From: Amoebophrya sp. A120
Taxonomy: Eukaryota; Protista; Dinoflagellata
Assembly: GCA_905178155.1 (NCBI GenBank)
Contig: CAJINV010000009.1
Coordinates: forward strand, 1,423,907 to 1,487,906
Direction: 5' to 3'
DNA: 64,000 bases
The notes under the pieces were generated by a model. It saw only the letters and a program-made list of their open reading frames with translations, searched no databases and had not been told where the DNA came from. The position numbers and the translations under genes were made by a program. Below, piece after piece: positions 29,071-53,355 of this stretch (the stretch's first letter is position 1; each line of letters begins with the position of its first letter).

Positions 29071-32000
29071 GTGAAGGCATTCGAAGCGGAGCGATGCACC
29101 CACTGCAAGGCGAATGATCGCTCGACCAAAGACTGGGGAAGCCTATACCTAAAGACCCCTGCATTATTTTCAATAAGAAGAAAAAGGGCGCAGGCAAACG
29201 GTGAGCGACTTGTGACGCGCCCAGTTTCGAAAACATCTCCCGACATACTAGTATATGAGTCGAGATATTTTAGTCACGAAAACACGACGGCAGTGAAAAT
29301 GAAAGCAAGTGACCACAGCCTGCTAAAGACAACGATAAAAGTCACAGATAACTTCCTCGAGTTGCATGATTTTGAAACAGAGCCACCGATACTTATAGAG
29401 AATCAAAACAGAGTGATTTTCAAGGTGAAAGAGACCACGGACAAGGAATGGGAAAGGTTCACACGAGAAGTAGCGAAGTTGTTTCGAAAGGTGAACATAG
29501 GAGATGAGACAGACGAAACAAAAATAGTCGACTATTGGACGGAGGGGATTCTTCGCCGCGAGGACTGGGTGCCGGGGCAGGAGATCTCGACGAAGAAAGC
29601 AGATGGGCTCTTGATAAAAATGCGAAACATCTTCAAACAGGTCGGGAGACGTACGCTGAAGTTCAAGCATGAGAAGAAAAGGAAGAAAGACAAGAAGAAC
29701 AAGGAGGAGCAAAACATGAACAAGCAAGACGTAGATGAGAAAAATCACAACGAAGAGAAGGCCAGCCGAGAAGAAAAGCACGGAGACGAGCAGGAAGACG
29801 TAAGCGCATCCCCCCCAGAGATAGACTGGGATGGGATCATCAAGAGAAAAGGCAAAAGCAAGTGGAGCACAGGCTTCCCCAAAATGATGGTGAAGAGCGA
29901 CGAAGCGACAGGAGTAAAGTATCTCAAGAGGGCGACGGGGGTCGAAGCCAAGGACCTGAGCGAGGCCAACAAGGAACTAAAGGCGCGAAAAGTAAACATA
30001 CCCCCCCTAGAAGACGAGTGCACGCGGGCGCCGGCGGAGATATGCAGGATAATAAAGAACTTCTTCAGAGAAAAACCGTTCAAAGTTTACGAAGAATTTG
30101 CAACGCGTCCGAGCTCGAAAGACGAAGTCGCGCAGGCGTGGGGAAAAGCGGAAGCCGACTACAGGACAGCGCAGGCAGAGGCGAAAGAGGAAGGAGGCGC
30201 GACGTGGTCGCTCTCATACCAAGAAGTGGAGGCAGCAATAAGAAAGTTGGAACCAGGTCGCACGCCCGGTTTTTGCATGACAACGCATGAAATGATCAGG
30301 CATGCAGGGCCAAATATGAGATGGGCAATATTTCAATGCATGGCGGCGTATGTGAAGGACGGAACGTATCCGAAGATGGGAAGGCAAATATCGATGGCAG
30401 CAGTGCCAAAAGTTTCCGGAGGTTGCTACATAGAGTCCCTCATGCGACCGGTGAGCCTTTGCTCCGTTTTCAGCAAGCTCCTAGACAACGTGCTGGACAC
30501 ACAGACGACAGCCCCTCTTCCTAGACGGGTGGAAATGGGAGGGGGCGACCCTCCTCGGAAGAAGCAAAGCGGTCCAGCCGGAGTTCTCCAACGCGTGCAG
30601 GCAGTCACACGGTAAGGAGTTTTCGACGGTCGTCATCGTAGATGGCATTTTCAGGCAGGCGCACTGCTCAGTCATCCTGAATGACTGCTGTTCGGGTTTT
30701 GATATTGTTTGTCATGTAGAAGCCCTAGGGCAGCTGGAGTATAAGCTCTGCCCACCACAGCAGCGAGCATCGGTAGCAGGTTTCCTGAAAATGAGGAAGA
30801 TAAAGCTACCAGGAGGAAAAGAGTACAGCCTGTGGGTCGGCAAGCCGCAAGGATCACCGTTGAGCGGCTCGGTGTGGAACGGATACACAATAGAATTAAT
30901 AGTAGACCTAGTTGCCCTAGACGTTGTGAAGGCGCTGAGTGCGTACAGCGACGACATCACCGCAGTAGTGGTCGAGAAAGACGAGTCCGAGAACATCCCC
31001 GAGAAGATGCGACAGCTAGGCCTGAAAAGAAAAATCTTCTTCGACGCGAACAAGCACAAGCGGATCACATTCAACGCGAAGCGGCCACCAGCTAAGTCAT
31101 GCACAGGGGTGGGGAAGTCTCTCGGCGTCACGTACGACGGGACATACTCCTTCACCTCGCAAGCGGATCAAGTCCTGAAAAAAGTAGGAAAAGAGTTTGC
31201 ATTTTTGCAAACAGAAAAAGGATGGAGCAAAAAACAGAACAAGATGCTCATCGAATCTTTTGCATACCCAGCAGTGACCTCAGTCTCAGTAGTAACATTT
31301 CCATACTTCACGCAGACAGCGAAGAAAGAAATCGCAAAAGAGTTCTCGACGAAAATAAAACAACGACTAGGCATTCCGAGGCACTGCAGCAATTCGGTCA
31401 TGTATAACGCCACAGGGCTGCCGCACCCAGTAGACAGTCTGCTAGTTGAAGCATTAATGACTTTCTACAAGGGGGCCGCGCTCAGTATCTGGCCCTTCCA
31501 CCAGGAGGAGGAAGAGGTGCCAGATTTCAGGCCAAGCAAAGAACTAGAGCGAGCAGCAGGCTCGCAACCCCATCCCCCCACACAGGTACAAGCCCCGCCG
31601 GAGGAGGCCGCGCAGCCGGCGGCAGCTGTCTCGCACGGCGAATCGCAGGCAAGCGCGGACATCCCCCCCCCCCGACGACATCCCGGGCGACGATGCAGTT
31701 GCTGCTCTGCGTGACCCAGTTGCAGCGACAGTAATAAGAGACAATCCCCTATGGGCCCACTGCGACGAAGCATGGACAAGCAGAATGAACCGAATAGCAC
31801 TAAGCCAAGAATTCCAACCCATAGCAGCAAGCGCCGCCAATCTGCAAGTAGGGCGGCAGTTCTGGCGCGGCGTGAACAGGATCCAAGTCTTCCCAATGAG
31901 CAAAATAGCGAGCAGGTTCCGTCTACGTGATCCCGCGGACATCAAGAAGCACAAAATGAAGAACAACACGAGGCGCATGATCTCGCGCCTGATAGAGAAG

Positions 32001-33158
32001 GAGGCCAGGCGGCACCTTACGCACGCGGACACGATGGCGACTTTCACGGACGGAGGAGCAAAAGGCGAGCGGGGAAGTGGCGGGGGAGCAACATGGCACA
32101 AAGTCCTCCCGTCGGCGCCGAAGCCTGCGCCAGTAGTAGCCAGCTTCTGCGGAGTAGAAGCAAAAATCCACTACGAACTAGAAATCAACCCGGACTCCTT
32201 CGACGGCGAGTGCTTCGGCTTGAAGCATCAGATTAATGAAATACTAGAGAAAATACCTGCAGCAGTACTGAAATCCATCAAGCGGCACGTCTTCTACATT
32301 GACTCCAGCGGGCTGGTGATGGCGATAGAAGCACTGCGGGACAAATCCAATGTCATGGTGATTGACATTGTGCGAGCACTTGAAAGACTAGAAGAGGCAT
32401 CAGCGCCAGGAGTTGAAATTATTTTCAACTGGTGCCCGTCGCACCTAGGGTGCTACTTCAACGACTTTGCAGATGCGATGGCAACAAGAGGCCTGAAGTA
32501 CGTAGGAGACTCGTCGCAGGGACGTAAAACCTTTGAAAAAGTCATAACCGAGAAGCTGCTAAGAAGGATGATCAGTCAGATCGTCTACAGCTGCCCCAGA
32601 GGCTATAGCAGCACCCACCCCGCCTTACTACGCAGGTCCGAAAAGCTCGGACAGTACCAAAGCGACGAAAAGCGCCCTCGCTTCATCGACAACGTCATGG
32701 CTCTAGTTTGGCTAGGGGTGGGAAATCAGGGGCAGCTAGGAATGGGCAAGACAGTTCATGACGCTAAAAAACCCGAAGCAAGTTATATGCAGTGTCCTAT
32801 CTGCAAGAAAAAAGCGACCCCGACTACAGATCGCGCACTGTTTGAGTGTGAAGACGTGCAACTAGTGCAATTGCGCAAAGAGTGTCTAGGCTGGCCACGA
32901 CAGATGTCGTGCGAAAATCGCAGAAGTTACCTACAGGAGCGGAAAAACGTGAAGAACATTCTGAACTACTACGAAGCGGCATCGCAAAAACACGCGGGAA
33001 TTCTTCCCACGGGGCTAGCCAACGCGATCCGGGCCGGGCAAGAGAAATTCAACGCGGCGGAGTTCCAAGACCTGCAGGAGTGGCAACCGGAAAAAGCACA
33101 GACGAAAGTGCACGAGCGAGACCTAGAAAAAATTGCGAAGTGGATCGGCGACCTGTAG
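29071..33158 (+). pseudogene. LINE pol polyprotein in three frames (frameshifts at ~30500 and at the C-run 31663-31673)
   Basis: ORFs 29071..30615, 30791..31714 and 31785..33158 are colinear pol parts. The second and third frames stay open back to the ACACAC and poly-C sites. Confidence 0.85.
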
Positions 33159-33720
33159 CGCGACGGCGACAGCTGCATGAGAAACAGCAGAAAAAGCGGC
33201 ACGGCGCAGCTTCTTCCCTTCCTGTTGATTGGCGCGGCGCCAATCAACGGACGAAAAAACCACAGCCCCGACCACCCCCAGAGCCTGTCTTCTACGGCGC
33301 AATTTTGCCACCGAACCAAACCGCAGGGCAGTACCACGAGGCGAAGCAGAAATCCCCACCCTCCCCCCCACAGTCTGGCCATGGCGGTAAGAGATACCCC
33401 AGGCGGTAGGGCAAGTGTGGGGCGTTAGTGCGGGAGGAGCGGAACCACACACAGTGCGTCCCCTGGGCTCTCCGGAGCCGGAAGTCAGGCAACGTGGGTG
33501 CGCCAAGTGGGAGGTGGGGAGGCCGAGCAGCCAGACGGAGACAAAGAAGCGTGAGATGATGTTGAGGCGCGTGTTGAGGTGCTAACATAGCTAAAGGCAC
33601 CAAGCTGCAGTGCATAGTTAAACAGAACAAGTAGCGCAAAAAGCTGTCCCTACTGAGCTCGATCGCGAGTTCAAGGCGCGGAGGGCATCAGAGGAGAGCA
33701 GTATACTAAACAGCGGCTGT
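29071..33720 (+). mobile_element. Non-LTR retrotransposon (APE endonuclease - RT - RNase H architecture, as in I/Ingi-group LINEs), 5' degenerate; ends approximate
   Basis: APE C-terminal motifs TRPVSKTSPD...SDHSLL; RT motifs RPVSLCSVFSKLL, ND..SGFDIV.H, PQGSPLS, YSDD; RNase H motifs FTDGG, E, IDS, WCPSH.G...NDFAD; C-terminal CPIC. Confidence 0.9.
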
Positions 33721-35781
33721 TTGGGACCGGCGCGGTGGATGATCATTTTCGTCCCATTTTCTGCCGGATTTCTTTAGTTTAAGATCCGTCGACGGCCGCC
33801 TCTGTTTGGTCGTCGATCGATCCCTTGGAAGGACCTAAATTTTCACAATTTTGAAAATTTTCAAACAAAAAGTCATCCTTTTTGTGTTCCGAAGTCGTCG
33901 CTTCCGCCCCTGTTAAGGTTTTGGCGGTCAGTGTGTTCCGCAAATGCAGCAGTCGCGGTCGTTAAGTATTATAATGCGTTTTCGAAGTAAAATAGATAGG
34001 ATTTGTGATGCAGAATCTGTCGATCCGCATCACAATATGGACTCGACAGCGACGGCATGGCCGTCCGCACTTTTTCGTGCTAGTGTTCTCCCCCATGCTA
34101 TGCCGATGATGATGCTTGTGTTCGTCCGCGCATCTCCTAGCTATTTCGAGGTCGTATCGTCGTGTTTTCTTCGTGTGTGTTCAACGCCGACATCGGGGAC
34201 CGCTAGCAGCGACCACCGAGTGTGCAAGCCGGGCGCCCCGGATTGGATTGTATCAAAAAAAAAATGGAGACAACTATCGATAACTAAACTAGACAACCCA
34301 AGAGGTGACGTGCATGCGAAACAGGTGGTACTAAGTGCATCGCGTTCTCCATGCATCTCGTGACTCGATTGCGACATTATATTTAAACAAGAAAAAGCAA
34401 AGTGATTAGTACTGCCAGCTCCGCAACCTTTTTGGAGCACGTGGTCGCAATAGTTGGGTCGCATGTCAAAAAAAATGTTGTTGTCATGCGCTTTTGCATG
34501 TTGTCTAAGTCTTTTCGATAGTCGTCTCATGATTAACCACGGGCATAAAGCGGCCGCACCGAAAGCCGTCGTTTCCAGAAGATCGTCTTGAACTACACCC
34601 GATCGCGTCGTACTGCATCCAGGAACAGCCATCGGAGTCGTTGCGGAGCCGGCGATGCATAACGGAGACGCAGGTATGGTCATCGGAATCGGAGGAACAT
34701 ATCGACGAAAAGTATGATACTAATGATTGAAAGCTAGCTACACACGAAGTAGCTTCGCTGCTTCGTATATTCTTTTTGGTCTGTAGTTGCAAAGTGTTTA
34801 GGTCAAATGCAAATAGAAAACTGCCATCTTGCCTCCGAAAAAAGTAATGCGATTTTAGTGCACCACGTGATGAGAAAGCGTACGACTTCCCTACTAAGCT
34901 CGGACGCATCAAGCGTCTAGGCAAGTGGGATACCCACGAACTGACAATATAAGTCTGATGCTTTTTTCCTTCTTTCACAAAACCAAAGCAGGACGACCGC
35001 CGCTACGACGAATGTCTTCGTGTCGCATCTATCGCAGTCAAAACGCGGGCGAAGGCCTTGAGAAGAGTGTTTTGCACGTGGTCGTGTGCAACAGTAGCTG
35101 ATGAGAAAGAAAATGCAAAGTCGAATTGTAAGTTTTTGCCCGAGTGTAAGTGTTTAGCAGCGTCAATCTGACTACCCTGGGAAGCATTCATCTTAGATGT
35201 ACAAGCACCGCCAAGGATGAGAAATCTAATGAATGCGAAGGCGAACTCGAAGTAGTTCGGGACCGCTGCCGAAAACAGCAAAAATCCGGATGAAACTCTG
35301 AGGCGTTTTTTCCATCGAAGTGTTCTTACTTTTCTGTTTTCGTGTCGCAAGAGCGGGCGTGTACATCGAGTGAAAAGGGTCGAGCATTAGGTCGGTGCTT
35401 TTTTTTGCTTTTGTTTTTGCTTATGTACTAGTTTATAGCTCAAACAAGCGTACTACCGTTCGCATTTGTTGCATTTGCAGGAAGAAGAGCGGAAAGTCAC
35501 TTCTGCGAGGGAATGAGTACGTTTTTCAACGCACTTCGTGCGATAATACTAACGGGGAAGATGAGAGTGTTTTTCGTGTAGGTTTCGAGCAGATAAAGCA
35601 GTACAAGAGCGAAGGAGCGGATGGACAATGGAAGAAGAAGTCGAGACGCAACGCAGGAGAAGATGCGAAGCACAATATTTTCTAAAATACTAGCAGCTTC
35701 CCCCCTGGTTGTAACATCAACATACCGCCGCGGTTTGTTGATCTAACATCTGCGTCGTAGTATCCCCGCAGGTTTTACAAG

Positions 35782-38700
35782 ATGAAAAAGCAGAATAAGC
35801 GGAAACCTGCGGAGACGGACCTGGTGGTAGCAGAGGAAGTACCTGCTCCACCTCCTGGGCCGCGAGAAAACAATCCGGTGATCGACTTCTTCTACGGGTT
35901 AGGAGAAGTGCCTGCTCGCGCCGCGTGGAGGTTGAATAGTTTGCTGTGCCGAAACGCGAAAAGCACATCATCGACGTACTTCAACGACATCAAGTACGAG
36001 GTCGTCGATGTAAAATGCGAAATGGACGGATCGACGACCCAACAACTATTCTGGTCCGGGTCGACAGTGGGCAGGCTGCGAATATTTGCGCACATCATGT
36101 TCATGTTTTGCACGGTGTACTTCATCATCGGGGGGTACGACAGTATCGGCACCGTGTGCATTCCGGCACATGCAGTATTGTACCCGAATAGCAGCAAGTA
36201 TCCAAATGAAAAAACTCGATGCTGATTGGTGTGATCATTTTCATTCTATTTGCATGACAAATCTCAAAACGTCCGCAGATGATAGTCAACATCACCTGAT
36301 GATAATAAATACCAGCTGCCTCGCAGCTGATCTGTAATGCAGAACTTGTGATGCAGAAGCACTAATCTTTCGAGTCACGTCAAGCATCGAGTTTGGTTGT
36401 GATATTTTTTTTGACCGTGCCAAGCTGGGCGAGAAGAACGCATCCTGTTTTCGGGGCTTCAGTGAAGCGTGGGAGGTGGCTGAGCAGCTGCTCAGCTACA
36501 TCCGACCGGAGGAGTGGTATAAAAATCTACACCCGGCGACCGTCAAAATTTTTAGTCCCTCGACTGATAGTGGCGGATCCACAATCAACAGTTTTTTTTA
36601 TGTGGGCGCCGTATTCCTGTCCAACTCCTGGCTGCGGAGCAACGTGATCCTGTGGCCGACTCGGTGCCTCGCGCACCAAGTCGCCATCACCGGCCGCAGC
36701 AGTGTCGAGCTGTATCTGGGATTGTGTGGACTCGACAAAACGCGATGGCAACGGAGGGTGTATCTGCAGGTATGAAAATTTTTGTCATGCAAAGGGTGAT
36801 GCTGTGAAGATGTGGATAGTATGCAAAATAAATTTATTATTTATTTCTTACAGGGGATGAGCATCAAGCTGATGCAGGATCGGGTGCATGCAAAGCTGGC
36901 AGAGATGAAAGTGCACATCTCGCAGGCGTCTAGCGAAACCTTCAACCCAGCACCGCAGCCGGAGTTCGTCGACTTCGTAAACCGGATCCCGATTCCAATC
37001 AAGAAGAAAGAATTCTTCTTGAAATGCAACGTAAAATGCACCAACCTGATGGCGCCCCACGCCGCACGGGAACAGGCTATGCAGGCGGTACATAAATTGT
37101 ACAAAGGAACCAGATTGCCCGTCTGGACCAGATGGCTAACTGTGTCCATCGCACTGGCACAGTACGCGGCGATGTGTGCATTTTGTTTGCCGCTGATTCT
37201 CATCGGGCTGGGGTCGACGATAAAGTTCGGAGATGAACAATACTTGTCCCACGAATTCCAGCTTAACATGAGCGGAAGCACAAGTTTTTTTTTTTGATAT
37301 TTTGTTGTGATTCAAGATATGACGCAGAAAGAGCACGCGTGGCTCTTCGTTCTAGATTTTGCAATGCAAGTGTCATGCTAAAGCAACCACATGCATTACA
37401 GAGTCGTCGCTTCCAGAATGCATTACAAATTTCCAAATCTGAAAACACGACCCAGATATGCAGTTCATCTACAACATTAGCATCTGGATGGCGATGATTA
37501 TCCTGAACCCGTCGGACAACTACTGCCGCGAACTTTTGAAGTCGAGCGACCGAGACGAATCGCAGAAACTGTGGCGGACGTTTTTGCAGGAGGTAAGCGA
37601 CGCAGTAAAATACCTCGGGAACCGGGAGGCAGTTTTGTCTGACATGAAGTTCTTGTTTTGCCGGGTCGGGCAGCCGGACGTGCAATTTTCCGCAGCGCAG
37701 GAGGCCTTGGTATCGACGTTGAAGATTGCTTGACTAATGCAAACCTGTTTTCGCATGACAAATTTCCAACATCATCATCAAATGCATGACAAATTCTTTA
37801 CAGATCGACTTTCACCGCGTTGCGGCGCAGTTGGGATTGTACTTCTCGATTACATCAATGCGGTGCCGCGAGTTTTCAACCAACAAACACGACTCCTGGC
37901 TCGTCAAGTACATGTTCAAAGACCGCTCCAAGTGCATCGAAGAATTGGAAAACTGGCAGGACGGAAACTACGAGCAGGGGGATCCGGGAACGATGGCACT
38001 GGAAAGCCTCGCGGCGTGGTACAAGGCGCAGCCGCCGAAGCAGCGGAAGAGTCGTCTGCATTCGGCGTGCTGCTATTTGTACCGGCGGAACCGGCTGACG
38101 AAGAACGTGGAGAGGAAAATCGGCCGGTGCAAGCGGGTATCGCGGGAAGTCCGCCACGGTTTGAAAAGCACACCAGGGGCCGACACGGCCTGCAACAGGA
38201 CGGACTGGCAGAATTGCAGGGATTCTGCTGTGGACGAAGCAAAGCGGTTCGACACCACACCCGCAGACGATGACACGCAGGCCCGCGCACCTGCGGCGAA
38301 GAAGCGCACCTACCACGTTCCGCGCGCAATCGACATGAAACGGAGTCACCAGTGCAAGACGGTGGAAAAGCAGGAAGGAAAGCATGGATCGCTGAAGACA
38401 ACGCACCTGCTGAACAGTTGGGGCAGTGCTGCGGAGCAGACGAAGTACGAAGCGATGGCGCAGCTGCAGAACAAAAAAGAAGTCAAAGCAGGACCCAAGT
38501 TCGAGTCGGAAAGCGAAAGCGAGGATGAGTGGCCGGATCGCGCGGAGCCGGTGGCGCTGGCGGAGCGTGGTTGCTACCTCGCGGTGGAAGACGCAGTGTG
38601 TAGTGAGTTTGTCACTGACAAGAACGATTACCGGAAGCTGTTGCCAATCTCCACCTCCCGGGTCCTGCAGCCACTGCAGAACGAATCTCCGCCGGAAATA

Positions 38701-38838
38701 CGCGTCAAAGCGCGGAAGGTGCCACTGGTCGCGGCGATATTGGATAAGTACGTGCGGGCGAAGAGCAAGACGCTGAAAGAGAAGTGCAGCACGGATACAA
38801 AAGAAACGAAGAATGGTATCACAGTGAAGAACTACTAG
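35782..38838 (+). CDS. Divergent hAT-superfamily-like DDE transposase, multi-exon (~35782-36198, 36425-36769, 36854-37261, 37464-37709, 37804-38838); further 5' and 3' exons likely
   Basis: Motifs in hAT order: EMDGST (36025), TDSGGS (36563), RCLAHQV CxxH (36662), TRWLT (37127), ITSMRCREFS (37849-37878). All four junctions are in frame; two are GT-AG (36770-36853, 37710-37803). Confidence 0.7.
36199..36424 (+). other. Non-canonical 226-nt intron in the transposase gene
   Basis: CAAG direct repeat at both junctions, TATCC start, internal IR AAACTCGATGCT/AGCATCGAGTTT. In-frame join PNSSK|LGEKN; no sliding register gives GT-AG. Confidence 0.65.
37262..37463 (+). other. Non-canonical (CT...AG) 202-nt intron in the transposase gene
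   Basis: CAG direct repeat; in-frame join SHEFQ|FIYNIS; AT-rich interior with TGTCATGC and GCATTACAAA motifs. Confidence 0.55.
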
Positions 38839-38940
38839 CTTTTCAAAAAGAATGCGAGCTTGTTTCGCTTGACCCACAATTTGTAATGCAACACTTGCGC
38901 ATGACAAGTTCTTTTTTGCAAGAAAAAGCGTGTTTTTTCT

Positions 38941-40699
38941 GTGATACCTTCTTCATATGTGGAGCAATTGCAGCTGCACCACCTGCAGGACGACGAAAGC
39001 TTGGAAGATAACCTGCCGGAGCCGGAACCAGAAGCGGAGATCATCGACGGAGATTTGAAGGTTGCTGCCGCGGTGGAAAAGTTGGCTTCCGACTTGAAAA
39101 AGCTGCTGACAAACGTCTTGATCACGAAGCTGCGGCACAAGGAGACGAACGAACTGCACGACTTCATGATCCTGGAGATCATGTGCGGTCCGGCGCATTT
39201 CAAGGCGATACAGCTGCAGAAGCTGCCTGCTGGAAAAGACGAAGTGCAGGGCGTTTTTGACGAGAAATTCGCGCCAACCTGCGTGATGGTTTACTCCGAC
39301 TGCGACGTGGATTACGACCTTGGGGAGGCGCACAGCTTCTTCACGATGAAGCTACTACCGGACGCAAAGATGGCGCTTCCGTGCGTGTGTCGCGGAGAGC
39401 AGGTCACGATTAACCTGGATAAGACGGTGAAAGTGAAGCCGCAACCCGACAAGACCATCTCCGAGGACGCGATCAAGCAGATGTCATTGATGGAGAGATA
39501 CGCTCTCAATGATAACGTTCAGCGGACGATGCGGCCGGTGGCACTGCGTATTGTATCGGTGGAAACGTAACCAAGCAGCTTCGTGGTCGGTTGCTGGAGA
39601 AATACGACCAGAACGAGCGACTGGTGTTGCGGTTGGTGCTGTGGATAAAAAAGCACTGCTCCGCAGCCGAAGCTGCGACTGAAATACAAGCATTTTGTCA
39701 TGCAAAAAGCATGCATATGTGACGTTTCTCCGAACAGACCGGGTGCTTGGTTACGTTTGCAGCGTGGATAAGCTGCTGACCCGCAAGTACAGGACAAAAT
39801 CTACGTGGTGAAGGAGAAGCAGAGCGTCGTGGTGCGGCTGCACCGCGAAGTGGATGAAGATGCCGCATTGGCTGCTGACGACCTTATTCCGGAGCTCTCT
39901 TCGCAGAGCAAGCAGAAGGATACCCAAACGCAGCAGACGTCTCTGGATTCCCAAGTGTCGCAGAAGGCGACTGTGCAGATCGATGGACGGGAGTACAAGG
40001 AGTTCGTTTGGCAGAAGAAGATCGTCGCATCCCGGATGCATCCGCTGCGAATTTCCGGCTTCAAGGTCAGCGAAAATACCAGCAAGTCCGACAACCGCGG
40101 GAAAGCCAAGGACAGCTTGCGTTTCAAGGTGGAATGCATCCACGGAACGATGAAAAAGCAGATCGTGGACTGCTATTCGTCGCGGTGCTTGAATATGAAG
40201 ACCGGGGCAACGAAAAACGCCGTGAAGTACATGCGGCATGGCGAGCACAGCGACCACTTCTTCGTTCACCGAGTTGATGCTAAACGTGTGGAGTTGCCGT
40301 GCGCGCTTCATAGCACCACGAGCCGTCCTCCACAACAAAGATCCCACCGCTTTTCCTGGCCAACACCACGTGGATGCGCTGAAGCTGCAGTACGACGAGG
40401 CGATGAGCGAGATTCTGGAGTACGCGAAGCAGGTGGTAACCGTGAACGGGAAGAAGTGGGTGGAGATCGAAGCTGAAGCGACAATCGGCGACGGTGAATT
40501 GAAGTGCTTGGGCCCTGCGTTTGTCGCGCCGCATTACCACGATTTTCCGGCAGCGGAGGACGCGTTGGATGGTGATGAGTTGCCCGTGCTGCTGGAGAAG
40601 AAGAAGCGAAAGAAGAAGAACGGAAAGCTGCCTGCTATTGCGGAAGAACCAGAGCCGGAATCCGCAGAGAACCTGTTGCGGAAAATGGGCACCGCGTAA
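38941..40699 (+). pseudogene. Coding-like segments downstream of the transposase (C-terminal extension or cargo gene), apparently frameshifted
   Basis: ORFs 38941..39570, 39805..40476 and 40238..40699 look coding (GC-rich third positions) but switch frames near 39550 and 40300. Basic NLS-like KKKRKKKNGK near the end. Confidence 0.5.
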
Positions 40700-42099
40700 C
40701 GGGCGGATCGACGACAAGAACACAACGATTTGGAAGGACCAGGGGGGAACGCAACTCGTTCTCCAGCAGCAGCCGGCAGCTTCAGAAAATAAGCACTCAT
40801 TTTCTCTCTTTTAAGACTCTTCTGTAGAAAGCGTGATCATTTGGTAGTCAAAATATTAAGAAAATATTAAGAAAATCTTATGTAGAAAAACATAAATTAT
40901 TTTGTCCATTCGAGAAAATAATGAGACCTCTATAACCGTGATCGTAGCATCGTGGAACGTACAAAATAATGGACATACGTTTTTGAAAATAATGAGATAG
41001 TAATTGCCTCAATAATTCTACTCAAAATCTTGCTCTCCTTCTTAAGTTTTCGCGAGTCGTTCTAGTTGAAGTATTCTTAATAAAATGAACAGCTTTCTTC
41101 TTGTAAAATCTAGATTTTCACGTTCCCAACTTCAATCATCTGTAGCCGGAATCGACGAGAAGGTGACCAGGATCGACTTGGCATGACCTCCGCCATGTAG
41201 AGCAGCCTGGATCTGATGCGTTCATGAGCTTGTCATGCTGGCAGCTTTGTACTTCAAGAAGGCGACCTTCTGGATTTGTAATGCAGCGTTCCTGAGTTTG
41301 TATTGCCAAGGAGATCCTGCAGATGCATACCGAAGACCGCGATGAACTCCATGGCCACGTCCGCGTCGACCTGCACGACCATGGTGTCTACTTGGTGGGC
41401 TGCACGATCTTCGTCACCTTCTCGATCGACTCCTCCAATAGTACCTGATAGAATGTAGGATAGAATAACAAATAGTAGAAGCACGCTTTACAGTAGTAGG
41501 CTTCGCAGTAGTAGACGTCCACTAACAGAGGTATAAAAGCGACGCGATGTAGTACATGAAAGTGAAGAAATAGTAATAGAATACATGAAGAAAAGTAACA
41601 CATCTTGCATGGCATGGGAAAGCATTGAGTTGAAGCTTGGAAAAGGGATAGATGAACACAGCATAGCAAACATAGTGGAAAAGTAACAAAAAAGCACGCG
41701 AAAATCTTGTACAGTTTCAGTGTATAACTTTGCTGCATACTTCGCATCAGTTGCGCGTCATATTTACAGTACAAAACCAGAAAAGAAAGTAGTAGTACCT
41801 ATTTGCCAGCGTGCTTGAGCTCGTTTTCACATCTTCTGCACCGTGTTCGCGTCGAAGGTCTTGATGAATAGAAGTTCGCTGAAGTGTATTTTTCGCACAT
41901 GATGATTGAAAAGTGATCACGGATCCAGTTTCGTACTACAGATTTGAAATATAGTAGAAGTACTTCTTTGTTTCTCAGCGAATTGATATCGCTGCACACA
42001 CAGAGTCGGTTCTTTCTTTCTCTTTTTTTTCAGAGCGAGGTAGCTGCTGATTTGAATTCTTTGAACGTCCTTTTCAATAAAAAACCGTAGCCGATTATT

Positions 42100-45000
42100 A
42101 TGAACAGCCAATCCAGCCTTCGCAGTACTCCTACATCAGAGCGCTCTAGCACTTATCACACTTTGGGACTTCTGAGCGCTACACTGTGGGCTGGTGAGGC
42201 TTTAGCAGCAGAGAGTATTCTTGATCGTGAGTCTAGTTCTGAGGAATCTGAGCCACTCATGCCACCGCGCCTTACACGACATGATACTGAGCAGGTGGCT
42301 CAGGCCGTCGCAGAGTCGACGCGCATGACAGTAAAGATGGGTTTTCGTTTTGTTAGATACTTAGATGGAAAAGATGCGATGCTTTTGAAAACCAGAGTTC
42401 CTGATGAACCGGTATAATGAATGTTTTCATCATGCAAAATGAGAAACAGATGCAATGCTACTTCAATTTCAAATTCAAAAAAAAAAAACATCACAGAACT
42501 CGGCGTCGATTTTCGAAGCTTTGAAGCAACTTGTGCGTGATCAGAATTATACGCGTACAAAAATTAACGCGAGAATCGCGGCCCTGGGACGTAAGTCCCA
42601 GGCAGAAATTCAAAGACTTCCTTTGAGTCATGAGCGACTGATTGCGAAAGCAATCAAACGGGTGCCGACATTTATTCGTGAAGTTTTGCTGCTGACCCGT
42701 TTTGATCGTATTTTGTATGATAGTAAATTGTGGGAATTCTGTGATGTATTCGTGCACTTTGTGTCTAGTTCTGCATGACAAACTTGCAATTCTAGAAAGA
42801 GTCATCTTGAATCATCTGCGCATCAACTATTTTGATGTCGCGACGCATGACAAAGCAGCTCAGGAACACTTGACAACTAGGCCTCAACATACAAAACAGG
42901 AATTCCCACCTTGCATCACCATAACCGCGCGACGTTCCGCGACTCCGACAAGACCGTTTTGAGAGGCTGCGCTGATGAATCCGTGCAGGCGCTCCTGGTA
43001 CTAAAATATTTCAACATGTTCACTTGCATCTTGTCTTGCGTAGATTCAAAAAACTGGCTTTGTCGCCAAGGTACATACGACACTGCATGACAAATAAGAA
43101 CTTTGTGCCAATTTCCTAGCAGCATGTCAAGAAAGGGATTTTGTGTGATCAGAAAAGCAAGATCATGTTGAAATTGCATAAAAACTTCTTTCAGGAACAC
43201 CTGATGAGCCGCGCGTTGAGTCTCAGCGACGAGTCCACCGCCTTGTCCGCCTTGTACGTGTTCGATTGGTGCGCTGAATTCTGCAGCGACAACTGGTTGG
43301 CCTGGTGCGAAGTCGGAGCCATCGACTGTCTCGACCAGGGTATCGTGAACGCGGCGAGGTCCAATGTGAACACCAAGATCCGTACGTTGCAGGGAGTGGC
43401 AGAGTGGTATTTTTGTACTTCATGTGAGCATCAAGTCTAGTAGTGATACATGTGTTTTTCATCGATGATGCAACTATTGCGCTTTCTATCTTGGACTCGT
43501 GTAATATTGAAAAAAATACTAATACCAGGGCCGAGAACCGCGGTCGTTTCTTCATCGGACCTACCACGCACATGCCCGACTTGAAGGCCAACTTGAAGCT
43601 GGTGATCCGCGCCTGCCGCGAGAAGAAGGTCCAGAAGCTCCAATTGAAGATGCGTGACGTCATCGCCCTCAACCAGACCGAAACGCCCCAACATAAATTT
43701 TGGATGAAACTCGAAACGGTATGTCATACATAGCACCGTTCTGAACTTGCATAAGCAATCACTTTCGCATGACACAGTGAGGCTTTCATGAAAGAAAATC
43801 CCTCTACTTGCATTTGAAATTACGTACAGATTGTGAATACCGCTGCGACGGTGGAAATGTTGGAGGAGGGCTTGGTCAAGGTGGTGAACCACATGAACGA
43901 CCCGATGCTCATGTCGATCGACAGCGCGTACGTGTTCAAGCTGCTGGATGCCCATGAGTGCGGTGAACTCTTCATCTGGAAGGTGTACAACAAGGCCCAC
44001 GGGATGGTCGAAGTGACACTGTTTCAGCTGGTACGTATCTGTTTTGTACATCAGTGTTGAGTCGGTTCAGTTTCACACATTAACGTAAAAAATACAACAT
44101 CACGTGGCACAACGTCATATTTCGGCTTTCGGTTTACTTCGGTTTGATGTGCATAGCATGTAGTGGAAAGAAAAGTCTGAAATTAAATTAATACCATCAT
44201 CACTACAGCGTCGTGATGACATGCGCGACTTCATGCAGAACTTGATCGACGCCGTCGGATCCCTGGACGACATGCCGCACCCCTGCATCTCCAGCTTGGA
44301 TCGCCTGCGTCAGTCCATCCATGAGAACGACCTGGAGGCCTTTGCCAAGTTACCCGCCCGGATCACCATCGATCTGGTCGGGGAGGTGCGCTCCATGATC
44401 CTCAAGCTAGATGAAGAACGGATTGTCATGGACGTGAAGCGGATGCTGAACATTTTGTCGAAGATGAAGATGATGTTCGAACAGACGCAGGATGCCGGCG
44501 GGAACCACAACGTGGCCCTCCGCGACGAGGTCCACGCTGCGTTGGCCGAGTACAACAACTTGTCCGTCCGCAACCAGTTTCGTCCGTTGATCCTCGCCTG
44601 CAACATCGTCCACTCCGAGTACCAGATCAACCTCGAGACGGGCGAGCAGAAGGCCCGGCAGGTCGCTGCCCACTTGGACTATGTAGTGCAATTCGATGTT
44701 TCCATCACGCTATCGTCTTCGGTTCTATGCATAACAATGTCATGTAAAAACAACACTGGCACAAGTTCGAGTCTCGCATGTTGATTCTATGTTAGCTGGA
44801 AATAATGCTGATCTTGAAGTGAAAAAGCGTGACAAAGAGACGAAGTAGTGTGATGGAAACAATGCTTTCGCTTCCATATCGCCGTGTGCCGGAACAAAGT
44901 GTTTTTGTCCTACAACGAGGTCGAGGTCGCCTTCCAGGAGATGATGTCCGCGTTCCGCGTGTACACCCTGTTGCCGGCGCAGGCCGCGATCACCACGGCG

Positions 45001-45523
45001 ATTATCGGAAGTATGATTTTGCTTTTTGTTTTCTAGATCGGTTGCGAGAAAGAGTTGTGAAGAGGGAGAGGAAGTGAAGAAAGAACAGTATGAAAAACCC
45101 AAACGCGAATCTTCATGCCTAGTTGCACTTCATGCAAGAAAACTTCATCACAGACATGCAGATATGTTCTTCACTACACAAAAACAGCTATCAGGTGACT
45201 TTGATGCTGCCAGCTTGGCGTTCGAAAACTCGGATGAAGTCTGGGAATTAGCGTGTGGGGAAGGTCGTAACAGTCTGTACCGCCAGATTACCAGGAAATG
45301 GCCGAATGGCAATCCCGCCGACGGGGATCAGGCCATGCCGCTGCAGATGCGACCGGACATGTACGTGCAGAGGCGCAGGGTGTCTATGGACTTGGGCGAT
45401 GACTTGGACGCCGCGAATGCCGCGCCGCAGCCGATCGAGGATGCCAACAACGACAATGTGAACAACAATGAGGCCAGCAACGGCATCGAAGACGAGGAGG
45501 ATGACCTGTTGGCCGATGACTAA
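42100..45523 (+). CDS. Multi-exon cargo gene of unknown function, helical with acidic C-terminal tail
   Basis: Five consecutive in-frame GT-AG introns after 42412-42496: 42708-42899, 42998-43194, 43407-43528, 43719-43829, 44031-44208. Another intron at ~44683-44919; junctions at 45010-45195 unresolved. Confidence 0.7.
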
Positions 45524-46379
45524 TCGGCTTTGTAAAAAAGCGAAGGCTATTGTGCTACATTTATTAGTGTTTTATTAGTAACATCTAGTGATCACGAAGT
45601 AAGTGTTGTACAGTAGTTTTTACTTTTTGTTCATGTAGAGAGCTGGCAGAAAAGCACTCTCTCTTGAACGTATGCTCTGTAAAAGGGCAAATAGGATTTG
45701 CGTTCTCCGCGCAGCGATGCAAAGATAGTGTACCTGGAGCATAATTTCGAGGTCGCATCATTCGAGAAAATAAATCTGCGTGGGTTTTCCCAAAAGACGT
45801 GAGGGTGTATCTGTTAGCCGTCTATACAAAAGTTTCTGTTTCGAGAAACCCACCAGATTATGCGACTATTCGAAAACAAACAATTTATTTGTCGATGAAA
45901 GTAAAGGACCTGTGCAAATCCTTCTTTTTGAGACCACAGAGTAAAAGTGAAAATAAAAAAAGAACGTGCACCGCAACAGCTTTTTCAAAATGCAAGCCTC
46001 GATGTTCTTTCCACAAATGCAATATCGAATTGATCACCTTTCTCTTTCTCACATGTGAAGAATGCAAATGTAACAATCGCGACGCTGTTATTGATTACAA
46101 ATGCAAAAGAGTGTCGTATTATGTCTTTCGGTTTGTGGCAATTGATATTGTGAAAAGTCTTCACTTACAACACCAGCGACACATGAGAAAGAGAGAATTA
46201 TGCGGTGAGTATGTTTATTGATTCATAACAAAGACCGCACTTGATGAGAAAGCATTAGCTTAAGTTCATACTAGTTACAACACCACCTCTTCCGCAGGTG
46301 GTGAATGAGTGAGAGATTCTGCTGCGCTGTCTCGCGCGGCAGCTACTTGGAGCCGCGGTTCGACTGCTGCTCTGGGCCA

Positions 46380-46975
46380 CTTGGAGTTGTGGTTCGACGG
46401 CAGCCGCTACTTGGGAGCGGGTGCGGGTGGAGGCAGCGTGGACGGTTGAAGCCGTCTTACCGCCGTCCGATGCCGTGGACGCGCAATCGTCCAATGCCGG
46501 GTGGAGGCAGCGTGGATGCCGGGTGCCATCGATGCACCCGACGGTGGACTCTGCAGATACGGACGAGCAGCTGCGAGTGCGGGTGGAGGAGCAGCTGCGA
46601 GCGCGAGTGGAAAGGCAGCTGCGATGGAGAACGGGTGGACCACCAGCTGCGATGGGTGGACGAGCCACCACTGCGCGTGACGCAGCTGACGGTGGTCACG
46701 GCAGCTGCGAGTGACGCCGTGGACGGGTGGAGGAGCTGCTGCGTTGCTCAGTGGAAGGTGGATACGGCAGCAGCTGCTGGCGCGAATCGAGGAGCAGCTG
46801 CGAGTGCGGGTGGCACTGCGAGTGCGGGCTTTCCCGCGAGTGCGGGTGGAGGAGCAGCTGCGACGGAGGACGAGTGGACGACCAGCTGCGCCGGCGAGAG
46901 GAGCAGCTGCGCGTGACGGAGCGGACGGTGGACACGGAAAGCAGAAAGGAGAAGCTGCGGTGGAAGCGGAAATTT
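46380..46975. repeat. Degenerate GC-rich ~24-bp tandem repeat (GGTGGAGGAGCAGCTGCGAGTGCG)
   Basis: About a dozen CAGCTGC cores; translates as (V)EEQLRVR repeats in one frame. Confidence 0.8.
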
Positions 46976-47579
46976 GGACTACGGGCATTGGAGCCAGCGC
47001 GTCGAAGGAGCGGACAGCGGTTGTTTGATTCGATCAAACCTGATGGAAATCGCATGGGACGCCGCGAATATCCAAAAAAAAGAGCTATGGCCAAATCAAT
47101 AAGCGGTGGTGAAGGTCATGTCAAAGTCCCATCGTGGAATACTTCTTCAACTCAGGCAAAAAAAACGATTGCCTTGTATCTATGTCGCGTTTTGTATGTA
47201 CCACATCGATTTCAAAAAAACCCCGCTTCGCATGTTCCGGATTCAATGCAATCTTTTTTTTGCGACACGACGTCAAGTCGACAATCGTTTTGACGATGCA
47301 GCACGTGATCGACATTTTTGCACAAAAGCATGATCGCGCGCGACTGCGAGTTGATGATGGCCATAGCGCTTTTGTTCTGCATATCCTGGCAGCAGCGGAT
47401 GCAGCGGACCGGCGGCGAACAAGGACGAAAGGAAAAAGAGGAACAGATGCGAAAACGCCGCCGGATGGAAAAATGGAAGCGCGGAGAACCCAGCGGTCCA
47501 CGGATGGTGGTCGTGCATTGCATTTGCATTGCACTTGATAAAGAACCGCTTCTATCAAAAAAAAATCTCTCATGTTGCT

Positions 47580-47820
47580 TGCGAACACTGACATATCGGG
47601 CTGAAGCTTCACAGTGCAGTGGTTTGCATGCTTGGGAAGATCGAAGGCAGTAGCTCATGAGAATTTGATCTTCGTGAAAAAAAGACTTTAAATACGCATT
47701 TAGATCCTACATTGAGGCGGAGGTAAAATCTCACCGGATCTGCACTGTGAAGCTTTTAGCCCTTTAACTTCTCAGATATGCATGTAGTGTGTCAGTATGG
47801 CGCTAATGATCACAAGCATG
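47580..47820. repeat. Inverted-repeat pair, possible decayed MITE inside the large element
   Basis: GGGCTGAAGCTTCACAGTGCAG (47598-47619) vs CTGCACTGTGAAGCTTTTAGCCC (47740-47762); weaker outer pairing ACTGACA/TGTCAGT. Confidence 0.6.
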
Positions 47821-48217
47821 TCGTTTGCATATGAATAATGCTTCACAAACCAGCAGCGAACACACGGCAGGAGAAGCAGCCGAACAGGAGCCGCCGACTA
47901 TCGTCTAAGCGAGTTCGTGTTGCGGACAGACAGAACGCCTTCCGTAAAGTGCGTGGGTGGCTTTATTCATGTCACCGCGATGCACACCAAGTGCTTAAAC
48001 TAACTAGAACACAAGCTGCTGCGACACAGCAGCGACGTGACTATGCAGGATCGGTTGCTTCTGGTGTTCAACAAACATTGAAAAAAAAATTTTAAACTTT
48101 AAGAAATCCGGCAGCTGTCTGGTTTGCGTCATTCATCAAACCGCGCCGGTCCCAAGGCTGTCGCTCGCCCGCTAAGCCACTCCTAGCCACGAGAGCTCTA
48201 GCGTAACAAAGACAAAA

Positions 48218-49314
48218 TCAGGCGGACGGCCCGGGGCGGGGGTGCTGACTAAATTCGCGCTATAATCTGGCTAAATTTTTCCGCAGGCCGCGCAGCTTTT
48301 CGGCCCCACATTGATGGGCCGCGCGCCTTTGCCCGGCCTGCGCCCGCCTCGTGCGTGGGGCGGCCGGGCGCCGGGGGCGTTCCGCGGCTTCGCGCGAGGC
48401 CCTTTGCGCTCCTTTTTCGGCGGTGCCCCCCGTGGCGCCGCCCTCGAGCGATTAAAAATTTAAAAATTCGGAGTGGTTTCCGTCCGAATTTTTAAATTTT
48501 GCAAAGGCCGGCCCGCGCCCCTGCCGGCTTCGCGGCCCCGCGCCACCGCCCGCCGGGCGAGTTCGCCGCGCTGCCGGACCCCCGGATCCGGAATTCGGGG
48601 AAGCTAAATCGGACGGATAAATCTTCGTGATTTTCCGCAGAAATTTGGCTAACCGGACGCCTAAAATGCCGCTAAAAGTGCGCTAACTTCCCCGCTAAAT
48701 ATGTCGCTAAATATGTCGCTAAATATCGCGCTAAGTGTGTTGCTAAATCCGACAACAGGGAAATCCCACTGGATTTGGATCCGCGGACCAAATTTAGAAG
48801 ATTCCCGGTCGGAATTTAGAACACATTTTTTTAGAACGATATTTAGAACGATATTTAGACACATACTTAGACACATATTTAGAAGCATTCCAAGTGGATT
48901 TCAGCCGCACCTTCCACCCGCGATCCGATCGTGTGTGAAAGGTCCAGCTGACTCTCCGGGGGCGAAGGGCAAGGTGTTCTTCCGTCGAGCGCGGGACGTA
49001 AGCTCCGCGCGCAAGCTTGGGTAGGTCGGCGGGCGTTGACTTGAAGTTGCCCGGCCGCTCCCGGCAAGCAAGGTCCGCAGCAAGGTTCCAAGCTCCCCGG
49101 GCGTGATGGCCGGGTGGCCGCGCCGCACGGCCCGGGCCGAGCGAAGGCCCCGGCGCCCGCTCTGCGGCGCTTGGCAGAGCGGGGGCGGCGGTTGTTTTCC
49201 CGCGGGCTTTTTCTGCTTTGCCTCTTAGGCAGTTTCCTGTCTTTGGGGCCAAACTATTTAGCGGGAAAATAGAACAAATTTAGCGCGTTACACCGCCCCG
49301 CCTCGTCCGTCTGA
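48218..49314. mobile_element. 1.1-kb non-autonomous TIR element (MITE), TCAG...CTGA ends, 6-bp TSD ACAAAA
   Basis: ~59-bp imperfect TIR TCAGGCGGACGGCCCGGGGCGG / CCGCCCCGCCTCGTCCGTCTGA; ACAAAA at 48212-48217 and 49315-49320. Many CTAAAT/ATTTAG repeats; internal hairpin AAAATTTAAAAATTCGGA...TCCGAATTTTTAAATTTT. Confidence 0.88.
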
Positions 49315-49853
49315 ACAAAAAACTTTTACACGGGCTCGAGACGTCTAAGCCCATAAGGCTTACGCGCTAAAATAGCCGCGTCGAGCCGTCGCAGGGGAAC
49401 CGCAGAAGCCAGCAGGCTGCTCTATGGAGGGGTTTTCCTTAGTTCGGCTCGCCGGCAGGTTGCGTGGAAGAGCACCGGCGGGGGCCTGTCGCCTTTTGTT
49501 CAGCTTCGCAGGCTCATTCACAAAATAGCCCGCTCTTGGCCTGATCCTTAATATTTACGTGCGCGCCACGACCGGTTAGTACAAGACAGCGGCGGTGCTA
49601 CAAGGCCACAGGTAAACCATCCCTACGCCTTCCGGTTGACCTTGACGAACTGACTACCAAAACCGTTGCAGATCTCTTCAGCATCGCAGTCGCCCAGGGT
49701 TACAACGCCGCGCATCCCGAGGGTAGATCAGACGGACCACAGAAAGGCGTTGCGAGGTGGCCAAACGACACCACGATAGCGGGAGAGCGGAAGCAAGGCC
49801 TTTGTTCTACTGTGTGGCGTGCGTTGTTCTAGTCCTGTCTAGCTTGCTAGAAC

Positions 49854-49906
49854 AACCTCTACGAGTAGCAAGAGGGACCTCTGTCAAGAACCTCTACGAG
49901 TAGCAA
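49854..49906. repeat. 18-bp direct repeat AACCTCTACGAGTAGCAA x2
   Basis: Copies at 49854-49871 and 49889-49906. Confidence 0.85.
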
Positions 49907-50244
49907 TAAAGCGCCAGTTACTCACTCCTCTTATGTTCAAAGACCGCCCACATACGTCGTTCAGCATTACAAATTCCGTTTTCACTTTCCGCGTTTTGTT
50001 TTGACATTACAAGATCTACCCGATTTTTATCTCGTTTGTCATGCGGCTCAGCCGCCCGACATCACCATGCTGCTGTCCACGACCTGTGCTGTTCTGCATT
50101 TGGAGATAGTCTCTCTCTTATCTGCTTTGCACTTGAAGAACGAGCTCTCTTGTCTCTCTCTTTCTCTTTTACAATTTCTTTTTTTTTCACTTGTTTAAAC
50201 GGATCTCGTGATTATTTTTTTCGAACTCTGTTGCCTTTGCAGCG

Positions 50245-51140
50245 CATTAGCACTTACCACGGTGTGAACGTTTTGCACGTCTCGCCTGGCCCCGAAGCGT
50301 CTGCGTTTTGCTCAGTGATAAATATTATCTCCCCGGTGTAGTGCTCGCTTGATCTAATGCCCGGCGTACTTTGCAAGCGTACGTTACGCCTTATCCCGAT
50401 GAGAAACACGCGATCTTATCCCCCCGACCTAGTAATCGCTTGCGCCTTAAATATATACTCTTTTTGAAGAAATTGCACAGTTTTTATCTCCCCGAGCGGT
50501 AGTTGGTTTGAGGGTGTCGAAGGGGTGTGCGCCCTTTTTCCGGCTACAAGGCGTGTTTTGCTCAAGAAGTCACTTTGCACGCCTCGCCTCGTCTATCAAA
50601 AGTGTCTATTTTCCCGATCCAATACTCGCTTGCGCCTTAAGTCTAAAACTTTTTCATTCGGCATCGGGGTTTTGTGACTTAGCGCTTAGCATGGTATACG
50701 CGATATTCGAGGTTCAACTCGAAAGGAAGGCGTATGGTTTTCTTAAAAATAATCACTAGCTCCCCGACTTATAACTCGCCTGAGCCCATTTTCGGGCGTG
50801 TCTGCTTTTTCGATCTCTTGCAGCTTTCCACGGTATACGCGATAAGATCGCCTCGCACTTCTCGCCTTGTCCCGACGAAAAGATGACGCGTGTGCGGTTT
50901 TCTTAAATAGCTGTTTACGTCTTTCCCCCGTGTGTTAGAAGGTTCGAAAGATCGAGCCGTTTTTTGAAGTCCTAATCCCGCCGAGCTAAAACAGCGACTT
51001 TTAGAAAAACAAGTAAAAAATGAAAATTTTCAGAAGGATCAAACTGACTAAAAAGACTTACCCCGCCGGGCTAAAAGAGCTGATTTGTAGTCCTTTTGAT
51101 ATTTATTCACTTTCGCAATTGATCTTACCACGGTATGCTG
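50245..51140. repeat. Degenerate tandem array of irregular ~90-190-bp units
   Basis: Recurring CCCG...TCGCTTGCGCCTTAA-like blocks (~50344, 50436, 50625, 50775) and CCACGGT/GGTATACGCGATA blocks (~50257, 50693, 50828, 51127). Confidence 0.6.
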
Positions 51141-52580: not shown

Positions 52581-53355
52581 GCTACTGCTGCTTGTCAAAA
52601 AGAAAGTTTTATTGTTTGATCTCCGCTTGTGGATGATCGGCGATTCGCGCCTGCTCTGGTCTGCTAGCCGCGCGCTACTCTTTCAGTTCGTGTGGGCTCC
52701 TGGTGCTGCGATCACCGTCGGGAGTTGAACAACATGAGAACATAAGGACGTCGGTGTTTGAGAGCTATTCAGTATTCGACTTCCTACTACGTTTTGATCC
52801 TTTTGCATCCCTCACGCACATCCAGGATCTTTGTGTAGTTCGAAGCCCGCCGAATTTTTGCGAGCGGATTTAGCTTTCTTACCCCCTCGAAAAAAGGGGA
52901 GTCTCCTGACCCTTATGGTCGTCCCTGCCGCCGGTGGTCACGTCCGCGTGGCGCTTTCAGCTATTACTACGCCTGGCGTTACTACGCCCGCTACTGCTTT
53001 TTGGTTGGTAAGTGGATAGATATTTTAATGTTTGGTCTCCGCTTGTGGATGGCCGGCGACTCGCGCCACAAATGCACGTGTAGCTGCGCGCTACTCTTCA
53101 AGTTCGTGCGGACTCCTGGTGTTGCTGCCACCGTTGGGAGTATAAGAAAGAAGAACATAAGGACGTCGGGTCTTTGAAGGCTTTACTTTGCAAGACCTCC
53201 TTCCGTCATTTTTGCTCTTTGCTGCGTTCACGCGCAAATTGTATTTTTGATGGATTGAGGCCCGCCGAAGTTTTGCGCGCGGGTTTAGCCCTCTTCTACC
53301 CCCCGAAAAAAGGCACGTCTTCGGACCCTTCAGGTCGTTGCCCCTCCGCCCGCGT
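52581..53355. repeat. Tandem duplication of ~410 bp (52581-52989 and 52990-53355), diverged
   Basis: Shared blocks TCTCCGCTTGTGGATG, GCGCGCTACTCTT, GAACATAAGGACGTCGG, GCCCGCCGAA, CGAAAAAAGG. Confidence 0.85.

Follow-up and report, generated by a model that had tools for sequence, protein, structure and literature searches.

The stretch analysed here (the window) consists of 64,000 nucleotides of the genome of the dinoflagellate Amoebophrya sp. A120 (assembly GCA_905178155.1, contig CAJINV010000009.1, positions 1,423,907 to 1,487,906 of the forward strand), and all positions given below are those of the window. It harbors a transposon of 14,435 bp (33721-48155) that is bounded by terminal inverted repeats (TIRs), flanked by a 6-bp target site duplication (TSD) and carries two genes, a predicted transposase (gene 1) and an orphan (gene 2). 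The element is best read as a DNA transposon that was recently duplicated, lies at about two loci and is probably moved in a cut-and-paste manner by its own, hAT-like gene 1 product.

Element boundaries and target site

33715-33720, no strand: left TSD, GGCTGT, an exact repeat; only one hexamer stands at the paralogous empty site
33721-33785, plus strand: left TIR with its perfect blocks; contigs of both DNA runs begin exactly at 33721
48089-48155, minus strand: right TIR with its perfect blocks; contigs stop exactly at 48155
48156-48161, no strand: right TSD, GGCTGT, an exact copy of the left TSD
29071-33158, plus strand: open reading frame (ORF) of the flanking, frameshifted retroelement without long terminal repeats (non-LTR); RVT_1 E 4.3e-08, RNase_H E 0.018

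The outer TIR block is a perfect repeat of 16 bp (33721-33736 and 48140-48155) with the ends TTGGG...CCCAA, and an inner perfect block of 14 bp lies in register with it (33761-33774 and 48101-48114), both within an imperfect TIR of ~65 bp. By inspection of the sequence, the TIR does not enter the TSD and a register with an 8-bp TSD does not fit. An earlier note on this DNA had described the two blocks, the TTGGG ends and the GGCTGT duplication, all of which are exact. The significance of the structure lies in the combination of inverted and direct repeat and not in the inverted repeat alone, because 16-bp inverted repeats are common by chance: 25 simulated 64-kb windows, matched in dinucleotide composition, contained 16 chance pairs, none of which (0/16) had an adjacent 6-bp direct repeat.

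The earlier note had spoken of a flanking LINE. A retroelement does adjoin (a frameshifted non-LTR element with reverse transcriptase and RNase H), but the insertion point lies within repeated DNA 562 bp 3' of its last ORF, and this repeated DNA is probably the 3' untranslated region of the flanking LINE. A clear array of subterminal repeats was not seen within the transposon; the motif GCATGACAA, considered as a subterminal repeat, was dropped since it is intron-associated and occurs 11 times inside the transposon and seven times outside it. Additionally, Rfam gave no match in window 33000-50500, and a search of viral contigs with the TIR pattern found no relative.

Second copy and empty site

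The evidence on copies comes from contigs of public sequencing runs aligned to the region and not from a whole-genome BLAST search. In both DNA runs (X1 and X2), contigs start precisely at 33721 and finish precisely at 48155. The depth of X1 is 70-75 within the transposon compared to 41-43 on three unique flank contigs (~1.8x); these flank contigs show no difference from the window, and contigs within the transposon are ~0.5% divergent from it (30/6,244, 29/6,238 and 35/7,253). Two-allele bubbles (48/41 and 40/36) were also observed within the transposon, and foreign flanks are reached by two contigs at the left end and by one at the right end. From the contig breaks at the tips, the ~1.8x depth and the foreign flanks at both ends, it follows that there are about two copies of the transposon, roughly 0.5% apart.

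At the right end of the second copy the foreign flank starts with TGTTGA. Its left flank is a mixed consensus of two contigs (agreement 0.62) that is compatible with TGTTGA under an assumed tie rule, and because this consensus mixes two flanks it does not reveal a second TSD. In one further contig, only the final 55 bp of the right end correspond to the transposon and the interior differs, suggesting a derivative or a sister family. Another contig, from the flanking repeat, joins the left flank straight to the right flank, with AGCTGT as the only hexamer between them (loose end at 33706); it is a paralogous, not an orthologous, empty site, and this is the form in which the empty site that the earlier note proposed to look for was found.

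A segmental duplication of two ordinary host genes that happens to be bordered by fortuitous inverted repeats would also account for a copy number of only about two, and a 16-bp inverted repeat alone does arise by chance. Such a duplication is nevertheless very improbable, given a doubled depth bounded precisely by the TIR tips, flanks that differ, an existing empty site and a gene 1 with the motifs and predicted fold of a DDE (Asp-Asp-Glu) transposase. The locus is almost certainly a real, young DNA transposon, and the claim of a true TIR transposon is borne out by a second copy with other flanks and by depth and contig breaks at the TIR tips.

The differences between the copies were listed in part. 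Within the gene 1 exons (window 35858-40620), 19 differences fall in the 40 of 100 rows listed, 15 of them at codon position 2 and 18 changing an amino acid (P 2e-4 and 0.006, respectively, when matched for context); in the same partial list, 21 of 35 transitions stand in GpC context compared to 26% expected. Both skews were spotted post hoc.

Gene 1 and its relatives

35782-40699, plus strand: gene 1, predicted transposase of ~1,330 aa, from coding bias and homolog junctions; start codon and last junction putative
~35782-36198, 36425-36769, 36854-37283, 37456-37709, 37804-38816, 38949-~39546 and ~39772-40699, plus strand: exons of gene 1
36199-36424: non-canonical introner-like intron of gene 1 with a 4-nt direct repeat and a 12-nt inverted repeat, its junction set by the homolog P0001
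38817-38948: non-canonical introner-like intron of gene 1 with inverted ends
39563-39758: element with a 15-bp inverted repeat within the last intron of gene 1
40261-40264, plus strand: four extra bases that cause a frameshift in the C-terminal part of gene 1, missing from one contig of the other copy

Both genes of the transposon are sequence-derived models, and the RNA runs were uninformative either way (X4, one read in 19.5 kb; X8, seven short pieces). The spliced core of gene 1 is open over 1,022 aa without a stop and comprises five introns, modelled as three GT-AG introns and two non-canonical ones with inverted ends; the position of the last junction is tentative. Since the homolog P0004 aligns to window 36596-40654, the whole span is considered one gene, and a C-terminal extension of ~700 aa is shared with P0004 and P0005 and conserved in relatives from strain A25. 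The late frameshift probably compromises the window copy, and the other copy may be intact at this position. A mini-exon candidate (37316-37369) was dropped after homolog alignment.

An exhaustive HMMER search with exon 2 of gene 1 gave 11 matches, nine of which form one family with 23-44% identity to the window core; the remaining two (P0010 and P0011) were discarded as repeat artefacts. All named relatives belong to Amoebophrya (strains AT5.2 and A25, with one and at least three unnamed paralogs, respectively) and the others are unnamed metagenome proteins. A word-index protein search returned nothing for exon 2 and, when run with the family profile, recovered P0005 alone; viral contigs contained no relative. 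No description of the family was found in the literature, Repbase and Dfam being unchecked and able to hold it, and the supplement file of Farhat et al. contains none of the three A25 gene ids (GSA25T00017317001, GSA25T00004409001 and GSA25T00019930001), nor the word transposase. The family is apparently undescribed and centred on Amoebophrya.

In metagenomes, two of 108 candidate stretches (L001 and L002) were confirmed to carry a related transposase. At L001, a kinase-like ORF of 1,141 codons (3843-7265) lies on the opposite strand within ~0.5 kb after the related, apparently truncated transposase. At L002, a minus-strand ORF with integrase-like motifs (1-2916; an LTR retroelement by eye) stands beside the transposase gene, inside which the contig ends.

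Predicted catalytic motifs and fold

36025-36027, plus strand: first predicted catalytic Asp (MDGST), where strand 1 of the homolog model ends
36566-36568, plus strand: second predicted catalytic Asp (TDSGGST), just after strand 4; DSGGST is invariant in 5/5 aligned rows
36665-36676, plus strand: CxxH motif (CLAH), directly after strand 5, where the helical insertion domain begins
37124-37135, plus strand: WTRW motif, which likely corresponds to the hairpin tryptophan of hAT and MULE; W[TS]RW in 6/6 aligned rows that cover the position
38110-38112, plus strand: predicted catalytic Glu (NVERKIG), whose context E-x-K-[IVL]-G is shared by the window, P0004, P0005, L001 and L002

The motifs conserved in the gene 1 family comprise an Asp in a DG[ST]-like context, DSGGS, RCxxH, W[TS]RW and E-x-K-[IVL]-G, with a D-D spacing of 105-117 and an H-W spacing of ~123 residues; an earlier candidate for the position of the catalytic Glu, 'CREFS', was dropped after homolog alignment. 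Two fold models were obtained, one with AlphaFold for the core of P0005 (17 rows, predicted local distance difference test score (pLDDT) 61, predicted template modelling score (pTM) 0.34) and one for the N-terminal exon of P0002 (mean pLDDT 60). The P0005 core is predicted as strand-strand-strand-helix-strand-helix-strand, in which D58 ends strand 1, D175 comes after strand 4, CxxH follows strand 5 and E561 sits in a late helix, the W being located within the helical insertion that comes after CxxH. The same layout is described for DDE transposases with insertion domains in the available text of PMC8230255.

In Foldseek, Hermes ranked second for the P0005 model (E 0.05, 565 columns aligned) and reached E 0.034 for the P0002 model, with a query TM of 0.30 that is the highest among the matches listed. 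The insertion fold search gave Hermes Z 5.5 and 5.3. With VIA, Hermes was the only transposase in the best 50 for the P0002 model (Z 5.6, root-mean-square deviation 4.4 and 148 aligned residues, the longest alignment among the matches listed), and the whole P0005 model retrieved helical bundles only. The best Atlas clusters for the family are unnamed proteins of a mollusc, a basidiomycete and a cnidarian (0.90-0.92); clusters with hAT-related Pfam families scored 0.80-0.81 and are leads only. Exon 2 alone gave weak LAGLIDADG-like Atlas matches (0.80-0.85) that were rejected as noise. Taken with the motifs, these models make it probable that gene 1 encodes a divergent hAT-like DDE transposase.

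Proposed mechanism and its weighing

A hAT-like mechanism is, by analogy, the probable one. The gene 1 enzyme would bind the bipartite TIRs and cut by D/D/E on an RNase H core, and a hairpin would form on the flanking DNA with the help of CxxH and the WTRW tryptophan, both steps by analogy with Hermes and Muta1 as treated in the accessible part of PMC5499845. Strand transfer with a 6-base instead of an 8-base stagger could then generate the GGCTGT duplication. Recognition of the ends, which would have to proceed without a BED finger, might involve the ~700-aa C-terminal extension, although this step is speculative.

Several observations weigh against this reading. The two DNA runs (share 0.87 and 0.85) represent one sample, are not independent and are possibly the source of the window, and only one locus gave a readable TSD. 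L001 and L002, both cut by contig ends, showed no recognisable TIRs. In Pfam, neither the family members (P0004 and P0005 included) nor the gene 1 exons had a match at E<=1; NCBIfam and PHROGs gave no transposase match for the exons or for full-length P0004 and P0005, and sequence searches of the PDB gave none. The fold matches are weak and none reaches significance (Hermes E 0.03-0.05, Z 5.3-5.6, ranked below unrelated RNase H-like folds), and both models have low pLDDT (61 and 60) and were built on homologs rather than on the window protein. Finally, CxxH and W do not discriminate hAT from MULE or Dada.

Some of these points would also suit a real TIR transposon whose transposase belongs to MuDR, to a Dada-related group, to Kolobok, to P or to an unnamed superfamily of its own instead of hAT. 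This is unlikely: TRW- and ER-like motifs are hAT-type, and Hermes is the top transposase in both Foldseek lists and the sole one in the VIA best 50, against which stand the 6-bp TSD, the TT..AA ends, the missing BED finger and hAT Pfam match, the unnamed status of the best Atlas clusters and a motif spacing unlike that of Hermes. For the Dada part, the available text of PMC3706591 gives a 6-7-bp TSD, CxxH and an occurrence in Perkinsus, but also elements that have no TIRs and target small RNA genes, for which the Rfam search of 33000-50500 offers no counterpart. A hAT-like transposase remains the preferred assignment for gene 1.

Gene 2 and the remaining interior

42100-45523, plus strand: gene 2, orphan of ~719 aa with an acidic tail; nine exons, 719 aa and a stop, exons 1-3 uncertain
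41156-41424: inverted-repeat segment of 269 bp with a 5-bp direct repeat and a weak minus-strand coding signal; a nested miniature inverted-repeat transposable element or a decayed third gene
46542-46940: GC-rich imperfect tandem repeat of 12/18/24 nt without a consistent reading frame

The two genes together span ~8.3 kb and the rest of the transposon consists of non-coding ends, the 269-bp segment and the GC-rich minisatellite. A spliced transposase-like gene and at least one further multi-exon gene, as the earlier note had seen, do exist and correspond to gene 1 (with its open core) and gene 2. Seven of the eight introns of gene 2 are GT-AG and one (44693-44863) is introner-like. It is likely that the element has long resided in this genome, because both genes hold introner-like introns of the host type. 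Coding bias in gene 2 is strong in exons 4-9 and not in exons 1-3, and the GC content at third codon positions (GC3) is 0.80 and 0.47 in these two parts, compared to 0.56-0.69 in nine host ORFs.

Searches with the exons of gene 2 found no homolog, including those of Pfam, NCBIfam, PHROGs, viral contigs and, for exon 7, the word index, and neither L001 nor L002 contained a match. Gene 2 is present at two-copy depth and travels with both copies; it may have an accessory role or may have been captured. Because it has no homolog, its status as cargo is unproven, and the word cargo in the earlier note goes further than the evidence, an accessory role being the alternative. It is possible, if somewhat short of probable, that gene 2 stems from host or foreign DNA that was captured in this one family, a Pack-type derivative of a basic element of ~8 kb that carries only a transposase. 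This proposal is limited to gene 2 and compatible with a duplicated, hAT-like transposon; its composite look in GC3, the lack of a match at L001 and L002, the kinase ORF that comes after the L001 transposase and the contig that shares only the 55-bp right end agree with capture, as opposed to a model that is whole, open, intron-rich and at two-copy depth and to a protein search (the host genome itself being outside it) that found no parent host gene. Likewise, of the undescribed multi-gene lineage that had been suggested, the apparently undescribed family stands, but the multi-gene layout as a mark of the lineage finds no support, no homolog of gene 2 having been found.

Other features of the window

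A second TIR element of 1.1 kb (48218-49314) lies 56 bp from the right TSD of the large transposon. It has imperfect TCAG...CTGA ends and a 6-bp duplication (ACAAAA), three contigs enter it from other flanks, and it is likely a non-autonomous member of a related family with a 6-bp TSD. Three small elements with inverted TAT...ATA ends and perfect 5-bp duplications were also observed (13788-13896, 27074-27394 and 28615-28899), compared to 0-2 weaker chance matches per simulated window, and the first of them interrupts a long host ORF in the fashion of an introner. The ends of these elements and of the 1.1-kb element differ from those of the large transposon.

Farther away, a 1.8-kb element (9597-11398) lies between host exons and comprises inverted arms of ~190 bp with a perfect palindrome of 44 bp; it has no long ORF and no clear TSD. 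The window also contains a 79-bp direct repeat (3487-3565 and 4833-4911, 99% identical and 1,346 bp apart), a diverged tandem duplication with a unit of ~416 bp (52607-53148) and long host ORFs at 57686-62927 with a weak match to the N-terminal part of dynein heavy chain (E 0.0045).

Implications for Amoebophrya and its introners

The interest of the transposon lies in its host more than in its size. In the domain search of Farhat et al. (2021), as given in the accessible text, two putative transposases were found in A25 and none in A120, and a general mobilisation of introners by transposases was ruled out (PMC7789003). The available part of the genome paper on a fourth Amoebophrya strain reports no DNA transposons (PMC12005148), and 60 of the 63 'hAT' places in the table of Gozashti (2025) include one Amoebophrya row, a terminus-profile match finally classed as non-LTR/unknown. 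Given a young, nearly intact TIR transposon in A120 and Pfam-invisible paralogs of its transposase in A25 and AT5.2, the premise of Farhat et al. is weaker than stated, and the family profile makes the introner question testable. Recently active DNA transposons, largely overlooked by earlier surveys, are likely to be present in this lineage.

The transposon shares with the Amoebophrya introners, as far as the consulted text of PMC7789003 describes them, the same kind of genome, and introns bounded by inverted and direct repeats occur in both of its genes and elsewhere in the window. The introners differ in being short and non-autonomous, with direct repeats of 3-5 nt and other end sequences. 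The TIRs do not match the ends of the introner-like elements in the window, and movement of introners by the gene 1 enzyme is not established, the transposon's own ends being different. It would be a doubtful extension that syndinians harbor their own still-mobile hAT-related lineage (with a short TSD, no BED finger, a giant C-terminal extension and an accessory gene), invisible to domain searches, whose many divergent paralogs would supply the 'missing' enzymes for the miniature elements with 5-6-bp TSDs (three with 5 bp and one with 6 bp in this window alone) and for part of the Amoebophrya introner invasion.

Comparison with known transposon groups

Compared to hAT elements (Hermes, Ac and Tam3), the transposon shows short TIRs (the outer block of 16 bp falls within 10-25 bp), a predicted RNase H DDE core that a helical insertion interrupts behind strand 5, and CxxH together with a conserved W in the insertion domain. 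It differs in its TSD (6 bp instead of 8 bp), in its TTGGG...CCCAA ends, where the hAT terminus consensus is (C/T)A...T(A/G), in the lack of a Pfam hAT domain (Dimer_Tnp_hAT and related) and in the presence of the ~700-aa C-terminal extension and of a second gene. A BED finger pattern was found neither in the three plus-strand frames upstream in the window nor in 5/6 homolog N-termini, and a loose match in P0003 was discounted since it falls inside the catalytic core. The accessible text of PMC3942097 describes a multi-exon gene (five exons in BuT2) as here, and a hAT length of 2.5-5 kb; at 14.4 kb, the transposon has roughly threefold the usual hAT size. Because it lacks the 8-bp TSD, typical ends, BED finger and Pfam domains, the transposon is a hAT-like variant and is not filed as a hAT member; the hAT-like label of the earlier note is supported by the D/D/E, CxxH and W motifs and by the predicted RNase H fold, and the comparison with Hermes that the note proposed returned Hermes as the best-ranked transposase, weakly and on homolog models.

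Exceptions of 5-7 bp to the 8-bp TSD are known within hAT: according to the available text of PMC12730594, hAT6 has a 6-bp TSD, hAT5 and hAT6 belong to the animal Blackjack lineage, and TET+ hAT7 elements carry a second gene. IS3EU, in the same text, agrees in its 6-bp TSD but not in its TAYGG..CCRTA ends. The transposon resembles hAT6 in TSD length, with relatives of gene 1 found only in Amoebophrya and among metagenome proteins. It also resembles TET+ hAT7 in having a second gene, but Pfam gave neither a TET/JBP match nor any other for gene 2.

MULE elements have TSDs of ~8-11 bp, and the transposon departs from MULE/MuDR in its short bipartite TIRs, its 6-bp TSD and the lack of a MULE match in Pfam or in the fold lists. 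It approaches MULE/MuDR and Pack-MULE in its C/D(2)H and W motifs and in the proposed hairpin chemistry, which the consulted part of PMC5499845 presents as common to hAT and MULE, and in carrying genes between its TIRs (PMC6431247). Dada elements (4.7-11 kb, with a C/DxxH motif and present in the related alveolate Perkinsus; PMC3706591, accessible text) come close in TSD length and CxxH, but the transposon, unlike Dada, has TIRs and lies in a retroelement-linked repeat. The term giant in the earlier note was overstated, as 14.4 kb lies below the 20-kb cut-off used in the available text of a review of giant transposons, which cites multi-ORF En/Spm elements of 16-20 kb (PMC6431247). Placed among these systems, the transposon would add a BED-less branch with a 6-bp TSD to the mechanistic group formed by hAT and MULE.

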